Positions 1 through 7,040 of a stretch of 7,648 bases of DNA are shown one piece after another (the stretch's first letter is position 1; every line of letters begins with the position of its first letter). A program made the position numbers and the translations under genes. The notes under the pieces are model-generated. The model was not told the origin of the DNA. It made no database searches and saw only the letters and a list, made by a program, of their open reading frames with translations. The stretch comes from a virus (Duplodnaviria; Heunggongvirae; Uroviricota; Caudoviricetes), in IMG/VR virus record IMGVR_UViG_2693429623_000007, one strand, 5' to 3'.

Positions 1-155
1 ACCTGGACAATATCCTGAAAGCACCACTGGATGCGCTGACGCATGCCGGACTACTCATAGACGACGAGCAGTTTGATGAAATCAATATTGTGCGCGGTCA
101 GCTCGTTCCTGGGGGGCGGCTGGGCGTGAAGATTTACAAAATTGAGAGTGAGTGA
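1..155 (+). CDS. rusA: Holliday junction resolvase RusA, 3' end (5' partial; starts upstream of window)
   Basis: Frame from nt 3 translates to LDNILKAPLDALTHAGLLIDDEQFDEINIVRGQLVPGGRLGVKIYKIESE*, stop TGA 153-155. Matches the C-terminal region of E. coli RusA as I recall it (DLDNL..DAL..AG...DD...GGRL); recall-based, not searched. Confidence 0.8.
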   Translation, partial: LDNILKAPLDALTHAGLLIDDEQFDEINIVRGQLVPGGRLGVKIYKIESE

Positions 156-706
156 TCGTAAATATGATATATCCGGAAATTACAGGCAAAAGCGGCGAGC
201 ATTTACGTCTAAAAACGCTGGAAGCCGTCTGGATCCAGGGGAAATTACGGATGTGGGGGCGTTGGTCGTATATAGGTGGTGGCAAACCAGGAAATATGTT
301 CAATCAGTTGCTGGCATCCAAAAAACTGACAAAAACCGCGGTCAATGAAGCCCTGCGTAGAATCAGGGAGTCAGGGATTGATAAACCAGAGCTGGAAGCA
401 TTCTTGCGAGAGATGATCGCTGGCAGACAGAAGAGCTGGTTGTCTCACTGTACTGATGCAGAGGCGTTACGCATTGATGGGGTGATAAGTAAAGCGCTTG
501 CACGTTATCCTGGATTGATTGATATCCTGCGGCAAAGGTACGAAGGGCGGGGGATGAGTAAACGCAAAATGGCTGAATTGTTGAATGAGGTGCACCCGGA
601 ATGGTGTTTTAGTACATGCGAAAAGCGAATTGCTAATTGGTTGGCTGTTGCTGAATATGCGCTATACATCCCTATGCGAGAATCGTTTGCTCAAAAAATG
701 TCTTGA
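152..706 (+). CDS. Putative late-gene antiterminator Q (non-lambda Q family), assigned mainly by synteny
   Basis: 184-aa ORF directly after rusA (GTG 152 overlaps the rusA stop as GTGA; alternative ATG at 164), followed by a promoter-like element and an intrinsic terminator. Contains a W-G-x-W stretch (LRMWGRWS) reminiscent of DLP12-type Q proteins. Family call is uncertain. Confidence 0.55.
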   Translation: MIVNMIYPEITGKSGEHLRLKTLEAVWIQGKLRMWGRWSYIGGGKPGNMFNQLLASKKLTKTAVNEALRRIRESGIDKPELEAFLREMIAGRQKSWLSHCTDAEALRIDGVISKALARYPGLIDILRQRYEGRGMSKRKMAELLNEVHPEWCFSTCEKRIANWLAVAEYALYIPMRESFAQKMS

Positions 707-731
707 TTTTTTACGCATAAACTGTTTCAAT
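703..731 (+). promoter_or_regulatory. Candidate late promoter (pR'-like) downstream of the Q-like gene
   Basis: TTGATT (703-708), 17-nt spacer, TTCAAT (726-731) preceded by TG at 723-724 (extended -10 like). Lies about 60 nt upstream of an intrinsic terminator, the arrangement expected for pR'/tR'. Confidence 0.4.
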
Positions 732-790
732 CCAGCTACGCTTCGCAAAGCTATACCGCGAGGCGAATAGCAGACATGGACACCTGAAAG

Positions 791-814
791 AACCCGCTTT
801 ATGCGGGTTTTTTT
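791..814 (+). terminator. Rho-independent terminator (tR'-like)
   Basis: Stem cccgc (793-797), loop tttat, stem gcggg (803-807), then seven T's (808-814). Confidence 0.7.
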
Positions 815-937
815 GTGCCCGAAAAGCGGTACAGGACGTTAAATGCGCTGGTGGTTGCGAATGCCGGTCTTTCAGCTTGCTGGCTTTTTCGACAAGAGGT
901 ATTGGTATGTCACGTTAACCGGAAAAGGGAAAAAGGC

Positions 938-1135
938 ATGCTAAAACAGCAGGATATGACCGAAACCGCCAGAGTGGTGTTTAATGAATTAAGCGTCACC
1001 GAACCGGCGACCGTCGGGGAAATTGCGCAGAATACTTACCTTTCACGCGAACGCTGCCAGTTAATCCTGACCCAGCTTGTTATGGCGGGTCTGGCAGATT
1101 ATCAGTTCGGTTGTTACAGACGCCTTCCGCAGTGA
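938..1135 (+). CDS. Small hypothetical protein (65 aa), possible helix-turn-helix DNA-binding protein; allele 1
   Basis: ATG 938 preceded by purine-rich aaaagggaaaaagg. The longer track ORF from 815 would start inside the terminator region, so the internal ATG is preferred. Product MLKQQDMTETARVVFNELSVTEPATVGEIAQNTYLSRERCQLILTQLVMAGLADYQFGCYRRLPQ; the stretch ATVGEIAQNTYLSRERCQLILTQL looks like an HTH. A near-identical allele is at 1826-2023. Confidence 0.6.
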   Translation: MLKQQDMTETARVVFNELSVTEPATVGEIAQNTYLSRERCQLILTQLVMAGLADYQFGCYRRLPQ

Positions 1136-1144
1136 AGGCTTTTT
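1122..1144 (+). terminator. Rho-independent terminator overlapping the stop codon of the 65-aa gene
   Basis: Stem gccttc (1122-1127), loop cgcagt, stem gaaggc (1134-1139), then five T's (1140-1144). The same structure recurs at about 2009-2033 and 2201-2223. Confidence 0.5.
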
Positions 1145-1184
1145 AATTTGTGGTAATGGGCGGCTGGTGGGTGTTAGCGGCNTC

Positions 1185-1601
1185 CAGTATCCGGATGGTA
1201 AGCCGCCGGTATGGGCAAAGTGTACGAAAGGTGTGTATCCGTCTTACTGGGAAGAATGGAAAAAAGTCAGGGAGGTGGTAAAAGTTGCCTGTCCGGAGTG
1301 TGGCGGAAAGGGTGAGGTTTCCACCGCCTGTAAGGATTGCCGTGGGCGTGGTGTCGCCATTCATCGTGAAGAGTCGGTAAAACGTGGTATGCCTGTTATC
1401 AGAGACTGCCAGCGTTGTGGTGGTCGTGGCTATGAAAGACTACCATCAACGGAGGCATTTAATGCTATATGCGAGGTGACAAACCAGATAACACGCGCGT
1501 CATGGGAAAAAACAGTTAAGAAATTTTATGATGCGCTGGTGACCCGGTTTGATATTGAAGAAGCATGGGCTGAGCGGCAGTTAAAAAAGGTAACTAGGTA
1601 A
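1185..1601 (+). CDS. Lambda-type antiterminator Q, C-terminal fragment (5' truncated at the junction n at 1182)
   Basis: Translation contains CPECGGKGEVSTACKDCRGRGVA...CQRCGGRGYERLPS...YDALV...KVTR*, matching the zinc-binding C-terminal region of lambda Q as recalled (CRDCHGTGRA...CGRCKGVGYSRMP...YDALV...AVTR). The first 35 codons of track ORF 1077-1601 lie in a repeat that is intergenic in the other copies, so the true N-terminus is missing. Confidence 0.75.
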   Translation, partial: QYPDGKPPVWAKCTKGVYPSYWEEWKKVREVVKVACPECGGKGEVSTACKDCRGRGVAIHREESVKRGMPVIRDCQRCGGRGYERLPSTEAFNAICEVTNQITRASWEKTVKKFYDALVTRFDIEEAWAERQLKKVTR

Positions 1602-1606
1602 CAAGG

Positions 1607-1634
1607 TTGATTTTTCCGGAATCTGTGGTAAATT
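1607..1634 (+). promoter_or_regulatory. Lambda-like late promoter pR'
   Basis: TTGATT (1607-1612), 16-nt spacer, TAAATT (1629-1634). The downstream text ggtaaattcgtcataacgatggg closely resembles the lambda pR' initial transcribed region (GGTAAATTTGACTCAACGATGGG, from memory). Confidence 0.65.
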
Positions 1635-1681
1635 CGTCATAACGATGGGCGTTTTATGCCTGACGTTAGAAGAGTTTCTAC

Positions 1682-1706
1682 AACCCGCCGCCGAGCGGGT
1701 TTTTTA
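1682..1706 (+). terminator. Rho-independent terminator tR' (lambda-like)
   Basis: Stem cccgc (1684-1688), loop cgccga, stem gcggg (1695-1699), then six T's (1700-1705); about 45 nt after the predicted pR' start. Confidence 0.7.
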
Positions 1707-1735
1707 TGACTGAAATCGCGTCAGTACAGTAAACG

Positions 1736-2112
1736 CGCTGGTGGCGGTGAATACCTGTCTTTCAGCTTGCTGGCTTTTTCGACAAGAGTTATTGGTGTGT
1801 CACGTTAACCGGAAAAGGAAAAGACATGCTAAAACAGCAGGATATGACAGAAACCGCCAGAGTGGTGTTTAATGAATTAAGCGTCACCGAACCGGCGACC
1901 GTCGGGGAAATTGCGCAGAATACTTACCTTTCACGCGAACGCTGCCAGTTAATACTGACCCAGCTGGTTATGGCGGGTCTGGCAGACTATCAGTTCGGTT
2001 GTTACAGACGCCTTCCGCAGTGAAGGCTTTTTTATTTGTGGTAAATGGGCGGCTGGTGGGTGTTAGGGGCACCCACCAGCCATCTGCTCATGCGTTGGGT
2101 TCACAAGCAAAC
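1736..2112 (+). repeat. Copy 2 of the duplicated unit containing the 65-aa gene
   Basis: Diverged allele of 848-1181; runs into the N gap at 2113. Confidence 0.8.
1826..2023 (+). CDS. Small hypothetical protein (65 aa), HTH-like; allele 2
   Basis: The track gives the same 65-aa protein as 938-1135; the DNA differs at scattered positions, implying synonymous changes. Same terminator at its stop. Confidence 0.6.
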   Translation: MLKQQDMTETARVVFNELSVTEPATVGEIAQNTYLSRERCQLILTQLVMAGLADYQFGCYRRLPQ

Positions 2113-2179
2113 NNNNNNNNNNNNNNNNNNNNNNNNNNNNNNNNNNNNNNNNNNNNNNNNNNNNNNNNNNNNNNNNNNN
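2113..2179. other. Assembly gap (67 N)
   Basis: Run of n; flanks are two copies of the same repeat unit. Confidence 1.
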
Positions 2180-2302
2180 ATCAGTTCGGTTGTTACAGAC
2201 GCCTTCCGCAGTGAAGGCTTTTTAATTTGTGGTAATGGGCGGCTGGTGGGTGTTAGCGGCACCTGCCAGCCATCTGCTCATGCGTTGGGGTCACAAGCAA
2301 AC
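2180..2302 (+). repeat. Copy 3 (partial) of the duplicated unit: last 11 codons of the 65-aa gene plus downstream
   Basis: atcagttcggttgttacagacgccttccgcagtgaaggc... matches 1102-1181 and 1989-2112. Confidence 0.8.
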
Positions 2303-2364
2303 CTCAGGCCCATCTGCTTTGCGCAAAAGCGGTATGAGCCTATCAGAGAAGTGCTTATTGATCT

Positions 2365-3070
2365 ATGGCCAATACTGTAAAAATATCCAGTTGTGAGTTA
2401 ATCAACGCTGATTGCCTGGAATTTATCCAGACCTTACCGGAAAATTCTGTCGATCTGATAGTCACAGACCCGCCATACTTTAAAGTGAAGCCCGAGGGCT
2501 GGGATAACCAGTGGGAGGGCGACGATGATTACCTGAAATGGCTGGACCAGTGTCTGGCGCAGTTCTGGCGGGTGCTGAAACCTGCCGGAAGTCTTTACCT
2601 GTTCTGTGGTCATCGCCTGGCATCTGATATCGAAATCATGATGCGTGAACGCTTCAGTGTGCTGAACCATATTATCTGGGCGAAGCCGTCCGGACGCTGG
2701 AACGGATGCAACAAGGAAAGCCTGCGGGCGTATTTCCCCGCCACAGAGCGCATTCTGTTCGCGGAACATTATCAGGGGCCGTATCGTCCGAAAGATGCCG
2801 GGTATGCGGCGAAGGGCAGTGCACTGAAACAGCATGTGATGGCCCCGCTGATTTCTTACTTTCGTGATGCGCGAGCTGCCCTGGGGATAACGGCAAAACA
2901 GATTGCAGATGCCACAGGAAAGAAAAACATGGTGTCGCACTGGTTCAGTGCCGGTCAGTGGCAGTTGCCGAATGAAAGCGATTATCTGAAATTACAGGCG
3001 CTGTTTGCCCGGGTGGCAGAAGAGAAGCATCGGCGTGGTGAACTGGAAAAGCTCCACCACCAGCTGGTGG
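2365..3070 (+). CDS. DNA N6-adenine methyltransferase, beta class, N-terminal 235 codons (3' end interrupted by N gap)
   Basis: MANTVKISSCELINADCLEFIQTLPENSVDLIVTDPPYF...; catalytic motif IV DPPY at 2467-2478. Track ORF 2365-3102 runs through the gap. The gene continues in the segment 3694-4037. Confidence 0.8.
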
Positions 3071-3081
3071 NNNNNNNNNNN
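3071..3081. other. Assembly gap (11 N)
   Basis: Run of n inside the methyltransferase reading frame. Confidence 1.
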
Positions 3082-3150
3082 TGGCACAGGGGCGCGAGCT
3101 AAAACAGCACGTCATGGCCCCGCTGATTTCTTACTTTCGTGATGCGCGTA
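3082..3150 (+). pseudogene. Isolated 69-bp internal fragment of a divergent methyltransferase allele, between two N runs
   Basis: Matches 2811-2878 with several substitutions in the first 30 bp; the segment ...catggccccgctgatttcttactttcgtgatgcgcg is shared. Confidence 0.6.
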
Positions 3151-3179
3151 NNNNNNNNNNNNNNNNNNNNNNNNNNNNN
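3151..3179. other. Assembly gap (29 N)
   Basis: Run of n. Confidence 1.
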
Positions 3180-4037
3180 GCGCAGTTCTGGCGGGTGCTG
3201 AAACCTGCCGGAAGTCTTTACCTGTTCTGTGGTCATCGCCTGGCATCTGATATCGAAATCATGATGCGTGAACGCTTCAGTGTGCTGAACCATATTATCT
3301 GGGCGAAGCCGTCCGGACGCTGGAACGGATGCAACAAGGAAAGCCTGCGGGCGTATTTCCCCGCCACAGAGCGCATTCTGTTCGCGGAACATTATCAGGG
3401 GCCGTATCGTCCGAAAGATGCCGGGTATGCGGCGAAGGGCAGTGCACTGAAACAGCATGTGATGGCCCCGCTGATTTCTTACTTTCGTGATGCGCGAGCT
3501 GCCCTGGGGATAACGGCAAAACAGATTGCAGATGCCACAGGAAAGAAAAACATGGTGTCGCACTGGTTCAGTGCCGGTCAGTGGCAGTTGCCGAATGAAA
3601 GCGATTATCTGAAATTACAGGCGCTGTTTGCCCGGGTGGCAGAAGAGAAGCATCGGCGTGGTGAACTGGAAAAGCTCCACCACCAGCTGGTGGATACGTA
3701 TACCTCACTGAACCGGCAGTATGCGGAGCTGCTGAGTGAATATAAACATCTGCGGCGGTATTTTGGCGTGACGGTGCAGGTGCCGTATACCGATGTGTGG
3801 ACGCATAAACCGGTGCAGTTCTATCCCGGGAAACATCCGTGCGAAAAACCGGCAGAAATGCTGCAGCAGATAATCAACGCGAGCAGTCGTCCGGGAGACC
3901 TGGTTGCAGATTTTTTTATGGGTTCAGGTTCAACGGTAAAAGCGGCGATGGCACTGGGGCGTTGTGCGATTGGTGTTGAGCTGGAGACCGGACGTTTTGA
4001 ACAGACAGTCAGGGAAGTTCAGGATTTAATCGTTTGA
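3180..4037 (+). CDS. DNA N6-adenine methyltransferase, beta class, codon approx. 65 to stop (5' truncated by N gap)
   Basis: 3180-3693 appears identical to 2557-3070 (514 bp). The C-terminal part carries the AdoMet-binding motif I, FFMGSGST. Motif IV before motif I is the beta-class order. Stop TGA 4035-4037. Reconstructed full gene is about 349 aa. Confidence 0.8.
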   Translation, partial: AQFWRVLKPAGSLYLFCGHRLASDIEIMMRERFSVLNHIIWAKPSGRWNGCNKESLRAYFPATERILFAEHYQGPYRPKDAGYAAKGSALKQHVMAPLISYFRDARAALGITAKQIADATGKKNMVSHWFSAGQWQLPNESDYLKLQALFARVAEEKHRRGELEKLHHQLVDTYTSLNRQYAELLSEYKHLRRYFGVTVQVPYTDVWTHKPVQFYPGKHPCEKPAEMLQQIINASSRPGDLVADFFMGSGSTVKAAMALGRCAIGVELETGRFEQTVREVQDLIV

Positions 4038-4098
4038 AACGGATGAGATTGCAGAATTAATTACGCACCATTATTATTCTGCTCCCGGCCCTTTAGCN

Positions 4099-4395
4099 CT
4101 GCGGCGGTATTTTGGCGTGACGGTGCAGGTGCCGTATACCGATGTGTGGACGCATAAACCGGTGCAGTTCTATCCCGGGAAACATCCGTGCGAAAAACCG
4201 GCAGAAATGCTGCAGCAGATAATCAGCGCTAGCAGTCGTCCGGGTGACCTGATTGCAGATTTTTTCATGGGGTTGGGTTCGACAGTGAAAGCGGCACTGG
4301 CGCTCGGGCGTCGTGCAATTGGCGTTGAGCTGGAGACTGAACGTTTTGAGCAGACGGTTCGGGAAGTACAGGATTTAGTCAGCCAGAACGGATGA
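4099..4395 (+). CDS. Methyltransferase C-terminal fragment, second allele (5' truncated at the junction n at 4098)
   Basis: In-frame from 4099. Product ...VTVQVPYTDVWTHKPVQFYPGKHPCEKPAEMLQQIISASSRPGDLIADFFMGLGSTVKAALALGRRAIGVELETERFEQTVREVQDLVSQNG* differs from the 3751-4037 allele by scattered substitutions and a 5-aa longer tail. Confidence 0.7.
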   Translation: MRRYFGVTVQVPYTDVWTHKPVQFYPGKHPCEKPAEMLQQIISASSRPGDLIADFFMGLGSTVKAALALGRRAIGVELETERFEQTVREVQDLVSQNG

Positions 4396-4435
4396 TATTG
4401 AAGAATTAATTACGCGTCGTTATTATGCGGCTCCC

Positions 4436-4511
4436 GGCCCTTTAGCTCAGTGGTGAGAGCGAGCGACTCATAATCGCCAGGTCGCTGGTTCAAATCCAGC
4501 AAGGGCCACCA
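4436..4511 (+). tRNA. tRNA-Ile2/Met, anticodon CAU (ileX/ileZ-like)
   Basis: Hand-folded cloverleaf: acceptor GGCCCTT/AAGGGCC, D arm GCTC-AGTGGTGA-GAGC, anticodon loop CTCATAA, T arm GCTGG-TTCAAAT-CCAGC, discriminator A, encoded CCA. Resembles E. coli ileX as recalled. Confidence 0.85.
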
Positions 4512-4518
4512 TCACATA

Positions 4519-4595
4519 CCGCCATTAACTCATCAGGATAGAGCGCCAGCCTTCGAAGCTGGTTGCGCGGGGTTCGAGTCCTCGATGGCGGTCCA
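4519..4595 (+). tRNA. tRNA-Arg, anticodon UCG
   Basis: Acceptor CCGCCAT/ATGGCGG (7 bp), anticodon stem CCAGC/GCTGG with loop CTTCGAA, T loop TTCGAGT, encoded CCA. The D stem has one A-C mismatch. Confidence 0.75.
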
Positions 4596-4608
4596 TTATC
4601 TGCATCAT

Positions 4609-4685
4609 GCGTTGTTAGCTCAGCCGGACAGAGCAATTGCCTTCTAAGCAATCGGTCACTGGTTCGAATCCAGTACAACGCGCCA
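4609..4685 (+). tRNA. tRNA-Arg, anticodon UCU
   Basis: Acceptor GCGTTGT/ACAACGC, D arm GCTC-AGCCGGACA-GAGC, anticodon stem ATTGC/GCAAT with loop CTTCTAA, T arm ACTGG-TTCGAAT-CCAGT, encoded CCA. Confidence 0.85.
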
Positions 4686-4698
4686 CGCTTATTTTTCC

Positions 4699-4723
4699 AG
4701 GCTCGCTTCGGCGGGCCTTTTTC
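4699..4723 (+). terminator. Rho-independent terminator after the tRNA cluster
   Basis: Stem aggctcgc (4699-4706), loop ttcg, stem gcgggcct (4711-4718, one G-U pair), then T-run to 4722. Confidence 0.55.
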
Positions 4724-4860
4724 ATATCCGCGCCACGCCCGGCGCACATCAAAAAACCACAGAGCCTTTCAGGGGTGAGCTTACGGGATGGTCAGTGTGA
4801 CTTTCTCTGTGGGCTGGTCACCCCCGGGCGCAGGCTCACCCACTAAAAGGAAAAGTCACG

Positions 4861-5286
4861 ATGTTTGGTATTTTCAAAAAGAAAACCCGCAAGGCCATTA
4901 CCGAGGTGAAGAAGATGGAGAACCGTGACGCAGTGGAGGCGACCGTCTGGGGCGCGTACTCCATTGCATACGCTGACGGCACCTGTGACGCGAAAGAAAT
5001 CGCGGTACTGGAAAAAACCATTGCAGCACTTCCTGTCTTTGCGCCGTTCTCCGGTGAGATTGCACAAATGAGTGCAAATATCCGCGCCCGTTATGAAGCG
5101 TCGCCGCGTTCTGCCAATGCCGAAGCTCTTCGTCAGCTGGCTGATGTTGCCGGTACTGATGATGCAGTTAATGTGCTGTGCCTGTGTCTGGATATCGCTG
5201 ACCAGGACGGTATCGCTCAGGAAGAAGAAGCGCAACTGAAGAAAATTGCGCAGGCGCTGCAGTTGCCGCTGGAGCAGTACCTGTGA
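4861..5286 (+). CDS. TerB-like (tellurite-resistance TerB family) domain protein, 141 aa
   Basis: ATG 4861 with aaaaggaaaag upstream. Two internal half-repeats of the form A-x-A-DG...E...L..IA.AL (AYADGTCDAKEIAVLEKTIAAL and DIADQDGIAQEEEAQLKKIAQAL), the arrangement I recall for TerB. Family call is from memory. Confidence 0.55.
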   Translation: MFGIFKKKTRKAITEVKKMENRDAVEATVWGAYSIAYADGTCDAKEIAVLEKTIAALPVFAPFSGEIAQMSANIRARYEASPRSANAEALRQLADVAGTDDAVNVLCLCLDIADQDGIAQEEEAQLKKIAQALQLPLEQYL

Positions 5287-5435
5287 AAAGTGCGCGCCTT
5301 GTGCTGGCTGTCATCCTGTTGTTTCTGGTAGTGGTGGTTGATTTCACCGGACGACTGATGTCGGTGCTGGCAGATGGTGTGCTGGTGGCGATGGCGCTGG
5401 TCGTGCTCCGGCCTTTACTGCGTAAATCTGAATAA
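5283..5435 (+). CDS. Small hydrophobic protein (50 aa), putative membrane peptide
   Basis: GTG 5283 overlaps the upstream stop as GTGA; ggag lies 10 nt upstream. Product VKSARLVLAVILLFLVVVVDFTGRLMSVLADGVLVAMALVVLRPLLRKSE*. Below the 60-aa cutoff of the ORF track. Speculative. Confidence 0.35.
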   Translation: MKSARLVLAVILLFLVVVVDFTGRLMSVLADGVLVAMALVVLRPLLRKSE

Positions 5436-5444
5436 CATCACACA

Positions 5445-5481
5445 AAAGGCATCTGCGGATGCCTTTGACGGGGTGTTTTTT
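5445..5481 (+). terminator. Perfect 9-bp hairpin followed by a T-run; putative terminator or attenuator before the lysis genes
   Basis: aaaggcatc (5445-5453), loop tgcg, gatgccttt (5458-5466), then gacggggtg and six T's (5476-5481). Confidence 0.4.
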
Positions 5482-5520
5482 ACGGGTCGCTGGTGGCCCT
5501 TTTTTATTTTCAGGAGGAAG

Positions 5521-5914
5521 TATGTCTGAACCCTTATCCGGTTCCGGCACGGCTGCGGCGCTGGGGGGCGCGACGGTATTCGGGCTGTTTACCGGGATGG
5601 ATTTCGGGATTGTGTTTGGCGCGTTCGCCGGGGCGTTATTTGTGGCAACGATGCCGCAGTCACTTTCAGTCTGGCGCGTGGTGGCGCATTTTCTGGTGTC
5701 GTTTATTGTCGGCGTGCTGGGAGCGCGTGTGCTGTCAGCCTGGATTGCATCAAAAACAGGGTATGACGGTACATCAGCAGATGCGCTTTGCGCGGTGCTG
5801 GTCTCGGTGGTGTCGGTGAAGATTCTCTCGTTCATCCACCAGCAGGATATTGCATCGCTGGTGTCCGGTGTGTTCTCCCGCCTGCGGGGTGGAGGAGGCG
5901 GCAATGTTAAGTAA
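5521..5914 (+). CDS. Putative holin-like membrane protein (131 aa)
   Basis: ATG 5521 with strong SD caggaggaag. The track start at 5459 falls inside the upstream hairpin and is rejected. Gly/Ala-rich hydrophobic segments suggest about 3 TM helices by eye. It is the first gene of a cluster ending in an M15 endolysin. Atypical for a holin: the C-terminus is GGGGGNVK rather than strongly charged. Confidence 0.5.
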
Positions 5915-6179
5915 CCTTCCCGGATTGCTGAATGTGGCGTTATGCACGGTTATCGTGCTGACGCTCTTTTTTTATCGTCGCCGTGATTCCAGACATAAAC
6001 CGCTGGTGTCATGGCTGGCCTGGCTGCTGATGCTGCTGTATGCCTTTGCGCCCCTCAGCTATCTGTGTGGTCGCCCGTTAGCAACGGGCTGGCTGGAAGT
6101 GTTTTTTAACCTGCTGTTCTGCGTGCTGGTGATACGCGCACGCGGGAACGTCACAAAAATCTTTCCATTGTTGAGGTGA
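5904..6179 (+). CDS. Lysis-associated membrane protein (92 aa; second holin or antiholin candidate)
   Basis: ATG 5904 preceded by ggaggagg; overlaps the upstream stop by 11 nt. Product MLSNLPGLLNVALCTVIVLTLFFYRRRDSRHKPLVSWLAWLLMLLYAFAPLSYLCGRPLATGWLEVFFNLLFCVLVIRARGNVTKIFPLLR*, about 3 hydrophobic segments by eye. Stop TGA 6177-6179. Confidence 0.5.
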   Translation: MLSNLPGLLNVALCTVIVLTLFFYRRRDSRHKPLVSWLAWLLMLLYAFAPLSYLCGRPLATGWLEVFFNLLFCVLVIRARGNVTKIFPLLR

Positions 6180-6181
6180 AT

Positions 6182-6559
6182 ATGCCGGGTAAATTCAGAT
6201 TCAGCCGTCGCAGTGAAAAAAATCTGGAGGGTGTCAAACCACAGCTGGTTGCTGTAGTTCGCCGTGCGCTGGAGCTGACGGAGGTTGATTTCGGTATTAC
6301 GGAAGGCCTGCGCAGTAAGTATCGCCAGAAACAGCTGGTTGCGGAAGGGAAAAGCCAGACCATGAACAGCCGCCACCTGACCGGTGATGCGGTGGATGTT
6401 GTGGCCTACATTGGCAGTCAGGTGTCATGGGAGTGGCCTCTGTACGAGAAAATCGCACAGGCATTTAAGCAGGCTGCCGCAGAGCTGGGGATCGCTATCG
6501 AATGGGGCGGGGACTGGAAAACGCTGAAAGACGGACCTCACTTTCAGCTGAAGCGATAA
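6182..6559 (+). CDS. Endolysin, peptidase M15 family (L-alanyl-D-glutamate peptidase / VanY-like)
   Basis: ATG 6182 after gaggtg (the track uses GTG 6176). Putative zinc ligands in SRHLTGDAVD (H-x6-D) and DGPHFQL, as in T5-type endolysins (recalled). Directly follows two membrane-protein genes. Confidence 0.8.
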   Translation: MPGKFRFSRRSEKNLEGVKPQLVAVVRRALELTEVDFGITEGLRSKYRQKQLVAEGKSQTMNSRHLTGDAVDVVAYIGSQVSWEWPLYEKIAQAFKQAAAELGIAIEWGGDWKTLKDGPHFQLKR

Positions 6560-6566
6560 GTAAAAC

Positions 6567-6599
6567 AAAACCCCGGCTGGGGGAACAGTCCGGGGTTTT
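6567..6599 (+). terminator. Rho-independent terminator after the endolysin (3' side abuts N gap)
   Basis: aaaaccccgg ... ccggggtttt, a GC-rich stem with a 13-nt loop and four T's before the N run. Confidence 0.5.
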
Positions 6600-6823
6600 N
6601 NNNNNNNNNNNNNNNNNNNNNNNNNNNNNNNNNNNNNNNNNNNNNNNNNNNNNNNNNNNNNNNNNNNNNNNNNNNNNNNNNNNNNNNNNNNNNNNNNNNN
6701 NNNNNNNNNNNNNNNNNNNNNNNNNNNNNNNNNNNNNNNNNNNNNNNNNNNNNNNNNNNNNNNNNNNNNNNNNNNNNNNNNNNNNNNNNNNNNNNNNNNN
6801 NNNNNNNNNNNNNNNNNNNNNNN
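6600..6823. other. Assembly gap (224 N)
   Basis: Run of n between the endolysin terminator and the lipoprotein gene. Confidence 1.
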
Positions 6824-6857
6824 GCTGTTCTGATTTGGGCTGTGCGTTGGTGGTGAT

Positions 6858-7040
6858 ATGGCGCGAAAACACTGGACACACAGAATGCCGCGAACGGCGG
6901 TGAAACGGGCACTGGTAGCGATACTGGTGCCTTTTTTATTGGTGGGGTGCGTCAGCCTGGATAAGGCGCGCCAGCTTTTCGATACCGCGTCTCAGGTCTG
7001 TGAAATTGTCGACGGTGTTCGGCAGTGTCTGCAGAACTGA
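6858..7040 (+). CDS. Small lipoprotein (60-aa precursor); possible o-spanin (Rz1-like) or other outer-membrane lipoprotein
   Basis: ATG 6858 after ggtggtga. Basic N-region MARKHWTHRMPRTAVKR, hydrophobic core ALVAILVPFLL, lipobox LVGC. Mature part of about 37 aa with two further Cys. Not proline-rich as lambda Rz1 is, so the spanin assignment is weak. Confidence 0.45.
   Translation: MARKHWTHRMPRTAVKRALVAILVPFLLVGCVSLDKARQLFDTASQVCEIVDGVRQCLQN

Follow-up and report, generated by a model that had tools for sequence, protein, structure and literature searches.

The window, a stretch of 7,648 nt of viral DNA (Caudoviricetes; IMG/VR record IMGVR_UViG_2693429623_000007), carries on its + strand, directly behind a cluster of tRNA genes and an intrinsic-terminator-like hairpin, a leader of about 135 nt, two overlapping open reading frames (ORFs), tciA and tciB, and then the lysis genes (Table 1). 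The first-pass annotation of positions 4724-5286 had described a 141-aa TerB-like protein in the place where Shiga toxin (Stx) phages carry stxAB, after the tRNAs and their terminator, ahead of the lysis genes and without any stx. The ORF is indeed real, ARAGORN recovers the tRNAs, the terminator-like hairpin lies at 4699-4718, holin and endolysin genes follow at 5522-6559, and tblastn detected no Stx-like sequence in the window (best E=0.14, on the wrong strand). What had been missed is the orthology of the gene with tciA of phage P1, its partner tciB, and a large structured leader surrounding a small inverted repeat. The gene itself belongs to a known, already annotated family and is not new; the new parts are the evidence for a cassette displaced by stx and, above all, a previously undescribed leader family that tciA shares with antirepressor-type genes.

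Membership of TciA in the TerB family was confirmed by a match to Pfam PF05099 (33 bits against a gathering score of 24.4, E=8.3e-8, in two stretches), by a match to PHROG_632 'tellurite resistance' over the full length of the protein (E=1e-63), and by a profile of eight TciA sequences, which aligned with the TerB structure 2JXU_A at E=1.7e-9 (residues 15-135 against 21-144 of 153). The O157-type homologue scored 60.9 bits against Pfam TerB, and P1 TciA is 85.1% identical to the window protein over all 141 residues (100% coverage). TciA is an acidic soluble protein in which two half-repeats had been reported: the duplicated motif (IAYADG.../IADQDG...) is visible, with D39/G40 and G117 invariant in the family alignment, and agrees with the two-stretch Pfam match, but the self-alignment is not significant by itself, as 394 of 2,000 shuffles score as high. 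Its N-terminus is basic (net +6 over 18 residues), and the first ~10 codons (MFGIFKKK.RK; window 4861-4891) are kept, together with their DNA, across clades that are otherwise 41-43% identical; this segment could be a membrane-binding peptide, or its codons could be part of a regulatory RNA. Neither TciA nor TciB was assigned to a family by NCBIfam, where a DjlA match below threshold (E=0.017) was the sole result, and PADLOC-DB v2, which includes the TerB proteins of Bunzi and Shango, gave no family at E<=0.1 for either protein; Dionysus is newer than that library and so lay outside the scan.

The partner gene tciB encodes a basic protein of 50 aa with two hydrophobic segments, matching DUF3927 (PF13064, E=1.4e-14) and phrog_1470 (E=3e-23), and its GTG start overlaps the tciA stop codon (GTGA), which suggests that translation of the two genes is coupled. 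In 187 of 191 loci tciB directly follows tciA, including those of a virulent N4-like Salmonella phage and of Erwinia jumbo phages, and the Prokaryotic Genome Annotation Pipeline names the pair 'tellurite resistance TerB family protein | DUF3927 family protein'. The full cassette was found in 165 of 5,426 complete Escherichia coli genomes and a match to at least part of it in 819 (~15%), in up to six places per genome. A tblastn search with P1 TciC detected no tciC in the window (best E=5.7), and terC, terD, terE and terZ are absent both from the window and from all related loci that carry annotation. Homologues of tciA occur in temperate and virulent phages of several genera, among them strictly lytic N4-like and jumbo phages, and the P1 homologue lies within the C1-repressed ban operon; both facts point to a role in lytic growth rather than in classic lysogenic conversion.

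A few records of the module call for separate mention. The gene recurrently adjoins phage tRNA genes of differing identity (Ile/Arg/Arg, Asn/Thr/Gly or Cys), and P1 tciA has tRNA Asn/Thr upstream and Ile downstream. PP818812 ('Actinobacillus phage vB_Apl-pPE4', hereafter pPE4) is 91.5% identical to the window over leader-tciAB and the lysis genes, with 98% identity in the leader, and carries the enterobacterial C4 and IsrK RNAs; its stated Actinobacillus host is doubtful, and the record may instead represent an E. coli prophage or a contaminant. Likewise, the tciA copies on a Bacillota metagenome-assembled contig (2.7 kb) and on a Kocuria sabuli scaffold (700 bp), which are 92-93% identical to the E. 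coli gene, are most likely assembly contamination.

The site that holds leader, tciA and tciB in the window has other contents in related phages. Phage phiP27 (an Stx2e phage, NC_003356) has the same backbone as the window, with methyltransferase, tRNAs, stxA2e-stxB2e, two holins and endolysin in this order, and its homology with the window ends at 4734 and restarts at 5341 inside tciB (breakpoints 4734/4735 and 5340/5341), the left junction falling within the leader, after GCGCC. Downstream of stxB2e (about 5849-5960 of the phiP27 locus) a 5'-truncated, frameshifted 3' half of tciB persists, which shows that stx2e displaced an earlier leader-tciA-tciB cassette in that lineage; judged from this remnant, tciAB is the ancestral occupant of the slot on the phiP27-type backbone and stx2e is derived. 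On the 933W-type backbone, an O157:H7 prophage (RIMD 0509939) has the order Q, tRNAs, tciA, tciB, STnc100/AgvB, nanS-p esterase and lysis genes, a layout also found in phage JLK-2012. Homology of this prophage with 933W stops at the same left point and restarts 16 nt past the tciB stop, which amounts to a swap of ~730 bp of leader-tciAB for ~1,370 bp of stx2 (stx2AB) between identical flanks. The 'empty' slot in the enterotoxigenic E. coli (ETEC) strain ETEC6333 is a deletion scar that runs from the terminator and the initial bases of the leader straight into the final codons of tciB (AAATCTGAATA; locus 3100-3180). The terminator-like element at 4699-4718 is common to the window and the Stx phages, the homologous site in 933W being annotated 'terminator', and the right flank (5448-5509) is kept in phiP27 and in the deletion-scar prophage.

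Comparison across related prophages therefore bore out the proposed occupancy of the stx slot on two phage backbones, with tciAB, stx2e and the deletion scar as the states seen on the phiP27-like backbone and tciAB and stx2a on that of 933W. A tRNA-to-endolysin query had matches in 3,185 genomes and a tciAB query in 819; together with the variable slot, this difference marks tciA as an accessory gene and not as a universal core late gene. We regard the joint claim, that the gene is a TciA/TerB member and that it sits in the stx slot, as nearly certain. At nucleotide resolution, stx of phiP27 and of 933W sits where phages of the same lineage carry leader-tciA-tciB, and the tciB scar in phiP27 implies that Stx2e, at least, came in at the expense of this cassette, which provides a concrete model for the entry of stx into late operons. 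In O157:H7 RIMD 0509939, tciB is directly followed, at 6056-6310, by the small RNA (sRNA) STnc100 (145.8 bits) and by the anti-sRNA AgvB (96.5 bits), the latter encoded on the other strand; an sRNA locus thus forms the right flank of the slot, and 933W has it too, 3' of stx2B.

Between the terminator-like element and tciA lies the leader (~4726-4860), the evidence for which is entirely comparative and computational. Its DNA is better conserved than tciA: E. coli prophages share ~90% identity here even where their TciA proteins share only 41-43%, and it is still 71% identical ahead of terB in Erwinia jumbo phages. A profile search located it in 169 of 189 tciA loci, only about half of those with a tRNA within 400 nt; being present with or without nearby tRNAs, the leader belongs to tciA and not to the tRNA cluster. 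The covariance model (R1) matched the window at 4720-4866 with 163 bits and placed the leader exclusively on the coding strand, in every case with its end at the start codon; it gave no match in phiP27, the 933W stx region, the ETEC6333 scar, P1 or the N4-like phage.

The conserved fold consists of four helices and a local hairpin (Table 1), in which P2 crosses P3, and P4, a pseudoknot from the P1 loop to a distal segment, crosses both P2 and P3. Within P3 an anti-Shine-Dalgarno (anti-SD) stretch, CCUUU at 4765-4769, pairs with AAAGG at 4846-4850, the SD being AAGGA at 4847-4851. In a MAFFT alignment that was not fitted to structure, 94% of cells were paired as against 38-50% in slid-partner controls, and both sides had changed in 19 of 35 pairs as against 5.6+-1.7 in shuffles (0 of 500 reached the observed value); P4 was paired in 95.5%, with C-G (17) and U-A (12) exchanging at one position. 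We consider it highly probable that the leader is a real structured RNA, and fairly probable that it controls translation through the SD. The inverted repeat that had been noted upstream of the gene is present (gtgac 4797-4801/gtcac 4817-4821), but its arms of only 5 nt fall below repeat-finder reporting and are trivial, and GTGAC is actually the 3' arm of the local hairpin (4788-4804) inside the larger conserved leader.

Several other identities for this element were considered and set aside. Rfam 15 (4,227 families) gave no relevant match at E<=1 in the window, at E<=10 on 4686-4880 or at E<=1 in two paralogous-leader loci, and AgvB, AsxR, STnc100, C4 and IsrK are placed by Rfam elsewhere in related loci and not at the leader. 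A site for the cAMP receptor protein, a LexA site or a promoter, sought by eye, was rejected because spacing and hexamers misfit, and a put-like antiterminator RNA because the element lies downstream, not upstream, of the terminator. A fold pairing GGGGUGA with UCACCCC, which belongs to the minimum free energy (MFE) structure, was dismissed as the leader structure since this pairing is disrupted in other copies. No description of the leader was found in the searchable literature.

The leader is not confined to tciA. Paralogous leaders occur elsewhere in the same phages, at the annotated loci after the lysis genes and directly ahead of other accessory genes, and BLAST located such copies in 308 and 235 phage records, including 933W/EDL933-Stx, BP-4795, VT1-Sakai and phi24B as well as the Salmonella phages epsilon34 and SE1, Shigella Sf101, and Klebsiella, Enterobacter and Pantoea phages. 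Examples are L006 10029-10175 (O157:H7 RIMD 0509939), L002 5938-6083 (PP818812) and L194 1501-1651 and 2865-3012, some phages carrying two non-tciA copies, and a model trained on tciA leaders alone still detects these paralogues. Among the matches listed, 118 leaders from viral contigs were assigned to a downstream gene, which encoded a Rha-family regulator in 70, TciA/TerB in 24, a KilA-N protein in 12, a T5orf172/MUG113 nuclease-type protein in 10, an HNH endonuclease in one and a truncated 50-aa ORF in one; a further leader subtype lies ahead of P22_AR_N antirepressors. In the post-endolysin site (6560-6860) at which relatives carry a second leader and an accessory gene, the window is masked by a 224-nt run of N, and R1 found no second leader copy at the counterpart of this site in E. 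coli B7A.

Across 27 distinct leaders the pairing is retained while the sequence of the stems changes. P4 with at least 5 bp exists in 14 sequence versions (among them CGCCC/GGGCG, CGCTC/GAGCG, TGCCC/GGGCA, CGCAC/GTGCG, TCTCAC/GTGAGA, TCACAC/GTGTGA and TCGCA/TGCGA), P2 with at least 6 bp in 13, and the P1 stem in 15. The median per-sequence shuffle probability was 0.02 for P4 and 0.06 for P2, both helices having been analysed sequence by sequence with anchors and shuffles, as the paralogues align poorly in their variable central part both with MAFFT and with the covariance model. Of 25 leaders, 20 immediately follow a terminator-like hairpin, the sequence of which differs. The element is thus a widespread unannotated RNA: hundreds of phage genomes, that of 933W included, carry it ahead of an ant, rha, kilA-N, nuclease or tciA gene. 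A broader proposal, which we hold to be doubtful, is that it constitutes a new signal-responsive RNA class, a double-pseudoknot riboswitch or a protein- or temperature-controlled translational switch that gates the antirepressor-type regulators Ant, Rha and KilA-N as well as homing-type nucleases and TciAB throughout the lambdoid phages, those of Stx1 and Stx2 among them. Antirepressors can drive prophage induction, and a shared translational gate on them would therefore bear on Stx-phage biology; if the proposal were true, the leader would give these phages a common, hitherto unrecognised control point for late accessory genes, one able to influence induction and toxin release.

With moderate confidence, we favour an explanation in which 4726-5435 is a self-contained accessory cassette (leader, tciA and tciB) of a phiP27-like lambdoid prophage, read through under Q, gated at the SD by its leader and acting at the membrane. 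Q-type antiterminator genes and a DNA methyltransferase gene lie on the + strand upstream of the tRNAs, and a consensus scan found no sigma-70-like promoter in 4720-4860, between terminator and gene. Since tciA shares its strand with Q and lies further downstream, behind a terminator and without a promoter-like site, dependence on Q antitermination is plausible: the cassette would be transcribed mainly by Q-modified RNA polymerase reading through the intrinsic terminator during lytic growth. In the transcript, the leader is predicted to fold into its pseudoknotted structure, with P3 pairing the SD with the upstream CCUUU. This pairing would block or modulate tciA translation, and with it that of the coupled tciB, for as long as no signal opens P3; candidate signals are a protein, a ligand, temperature or an interplay of ribosome and RNA. 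TciA would then dock at the inner membrane, probably via TciB and its own basic N-terminus, and protect or monitor the membrane of the infected cell, conferring tolerance of membrane damage or exclusion of a competitor and not tellurite resistance as such. This last step draws on the hydrophobicity of TciB, the coupled genes, the basic N-terminus of TciA and the published membrane association of TerB, and we advance membrane protection only tentatively, giving it somewhat less than even weight. The 'tellurite resistance' label of TciAB, which was given by homology only, is probably misleading.

A number of observations weigh against this explanation. On the side of expression, a non-consensus promoter could escape a scan for sigma-70 consensus sites. 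As regards the leader, the five SD/anti-SD pairs are invariant, so that occlusion of the SD follows from the continuity of the helix and not from covariation at these positions; P2 and P3 cross and may form together or alternately, with nested sub-folds that are nearly iso-energetic (SD-occluded -24.2, SD-free -23.0 kcal/mol); the thermodynamic MFE of the window leader (-54 kcal/mol) corresponds to another, non-conserved fold, with a z-score of only -1.96; and compensatory changes are often inherited by related sequences, which leaves fewer independent events than the cell counts suggest. As regards function, genes of the ter operon (terC, terD and others) are absent beside tciA, whereby the membrane role of TerB carries over to TciA by analogy only, a CRISPR interference screen found the tciAB genes of P1 dispensable for plaque formation, and no functional study of TciA or TciB was found in the searchable literature.

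Other functions for TciAB have to be weighed against the one favoured here. The first-pass annotation had in mind a lysogenic-conversion or phage-exclusion gene, and TciAB expressed from the prophage might confer tellurite or colicin resistance or block superinfecting phages, like the plasmid ter operon. Such a function would suit the membership of the TerB family, the link of the ter operon to tellurite, colicin and phage resistance, the occurrence of TerB domains in the defence systems Bunzi, Shango and Dionysus, and the moron-like character of a variable accessory cassette between terminator-like elements; we nevertheless consider it unlikely, because the gene has no promoter-like site between it and the terminator, matches no PADLOC defence model, lacks the other ter genes, is placed in P1 under C1 repression in the ban operon and has homologues in N4-like and jumbo phages, whose strictly lytic growth leaves no lysogen to convert. 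Presence in temperate and virulent phages of several genera would also be expected of an anti-defence decoy, that is, a free-standing phage TerB domain which disturbs TerB-based membrane surveillance by the host (Ter operon, Shango, Bunzi, Dionysus) and thereby shields the lytic cycle. TciA is a minimal TerB domain with no effector attached, and one TerB-containing defence system targets jumbo phages, which themselves carry tciA homologues. The case is purely circumstantial, however, no known anti-defence family matches, and a simple decoy would not need its constant pairing with the membrane peptide TciB, all of which makes a decoy quite unlikely.

The small membrane protein TciB and the position of the cassette directly upstream of two same-strand holin genes, in the window as in B7A, pPE4, Evi and Klebsiella phages, raise the further idea that TciAB tunes the triggering of the adjacent holins via membrane energisation or ion balance. 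We judge such an accessory to lysis timing improbable, given that a 1.85-kb esterase gene separates tciAB from the holin in O157 and JLK-2012, that tciA lies away from the lysis genes in P1 and in N4-like and jumbo phages, and that the slot can be deleted or filled by stx without loss of the phage. As for the leader, it might act as DNA instead of RNA, as a boundary at which cassettes recombine or are exchanged and which is kept through recurrent mosaic joints. The stx/tciAB junction does fall inside the leader (after GCGCC at 4734), many different accessory genes including homing-type nucleases follow it, and the conservation across clades extends into the first ~30 nt of tciA. A DNA site recognised by a protein would, however, conserve sequence, whereas compensatory changes in four helices, including the long-range P4 with its at least 14 versions, keep the pairing and not the sequence, and the element occurs strictly on one strand, with its end at the start codon; a DNA boundary is accordingly very improbable.

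Comparison with known systems places the cassette between several of them. The closest is the tciAB(C) module of P1, which likewise has a TciA (85% identical) followed by a small membrane protein of the DUF3927/TciB type with tRNA genes nearby, and which is accessory, non-essential and, as reported for the tci genes, variable among P1-like elements. The two modules differ in that the window lacks tciC and P1 the structured leader, that TciB is only 46% identical, and that the P1 genes belong to the C1-controlled ban operon and not to a Q-dependent late region. TerB of the plasmid or chromosomal terZABCDE(F) operon, whose structure 2JXU was solved by NMR, is homologous to TciA and, like it, a single-domain protein of this size with an apparent duplication of the acidic ADG-type motif; its similarity to TciA is remote (profile E=1.7e-9), and TciA is encoded in a phage late region without terC/terD/terE/terZ partners, its partner being a 50-aa peptide. 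The stx cassettes (stx2AB of 933W, stx2e of phiP27) share the site, with the tRNA cluster and terminator on the left and STnc100/nanS-p or the holin region on the right, but consist of unrelated genes, and their own upstream region replaces the leader. Compared with a classical moron, which has its own promoter and terminator, the cassette has terminator-like elements on both sides (4699-4718 and 5484-5499) and no sigma-70-like promoter by consensus scan.

For the defence proteins BnzA of Bunzi, SngA of Shango and DinB of Dionysus, the TerB domain has been proposed to act at or monitor the membrane; TciA differs from them in having no PADLOC match and no helicase, pore-forming or other effector partner, and in being encoded by phages, virulent ones included.

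Structured leaders that occlude the ribosome-binding site are known from the preQ1-II and SAM-II pseudoknot riboswitches, from the translational activation of com-mom in phage Mu, and from lambda cIII and other RNA thermosensors. The tciA leader resembles them as a cis-acting mRNA leader whose SD is paired within a conserved pseudoknotted fold, and differs from them in having no match in Rfam 15 and in serving several unrelated gene families within one phage.

Table 1 Features of the tciAB locus and its flanks (window coordinates).
Feature	Position	Strand	Evidence
tRNA cluster, left flank of the slot	4436-4685	+	
tRNA (CAU; ileZ-type tRNA-Ile2)	4436-4511	+	ARAGORN, Rfam tRNA; ileZ annotation in 933W/phiP27
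tRNA-Arg(UCG)	4519-4595	+	ARAGORN, Rfam tRNA; argN/argO annotations in 933W/phiP27
tRNA-Arg(UCU)	4609-4685	+	ARAGORN, Rfam tRNA; argN/argO annotations in 933W/phiP27
Intrinsic-terminator-like hairpin AGGCTCGC-TTCG-GCGGGCCT with T-run	hairpin 4699-4718, element 4699-4725	+	
Structured 5' leader of tciA	4726-4860	+	alignments, RNAalifold, pair counts, covariance model
Leader helix P1 (hairpin)	4730-4734/4741-4745, loop 4735-4740		
Leader helix P2	4757-4764/4805-4812		
Leader helix P3	4765-4782/4832-4850		
Leader helix P4 (pseudoknot)	4736-4740/4826-4830		
Leader local hairpin	4788-4794/4798-4804		
tciA, 141 aa, ATG start	4861-5286	+	ORF, Pfam, PHROG, profile match
tciB, 50 aa, GTG start	5283-5435	+	Pfam DUF3927, PHROG 'TciB-like'
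Hairpin GGCATC-TGCG-GATGCC, right flank of the slot	5448-5463	+	sequence
Terminator-like hairpin with T-run, right flank of the slot, just ahead of the first holin (5522)	5484-5499 (flank 5448-5509)	+	
Lysis cassette	5522-6559	+	
Holin, Phage_holin_8	5522-5914	+	
Holin, Phage_holin_3_7	end at 6179	+	
M15 endolysin	6176-6559	+	

The quality of the assembly differs along the window. The block 4100-6599, which holds the whole slot, is clean; it runs colinear, at 97.6% identity, with a finished prophage of the phiP27-like type in the ETEC strain E. coli B7A. Positions 1-4100 consist of overlapping variants of one ~1.7-kb region (a TrmB-like ORF and the methyltransferase gene) that are chained by N runs (1182, 2113-2179, 3071-3081, 3151-3179 and 4098, with another at 6600-6823) and contain internal duplicates (2557-3070 equals 3180-3693 at 100%; 803-1186 resembles 1695-2075, and 3750-4097 resembles 4099-4446). 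This upstream half, to about 4100, looks like a scaffolding or collapsed-repeat artefact, and its duplicated methyltransferase pieces and two Q-type genes (152-706, DUF1133; 1077-1601, Antiterm) should therefore not be taken for a real gene order.

Just 3' of the DUF1133 Q-like gene, Rfam scored 740-813 as a weak IsrK match, with 21.6 bits where the gathering score is 50; pPE4 has a strong IsrK match and a C4 match ~2 kb upstream of tciA. Beyond the lysis genes, a 60-aa ORF at 6858-7040 (phrog_7528, unknown function) has a lipobox-like LVGC after a hydrophobic stretch, and its product may be a small lipoprotein.

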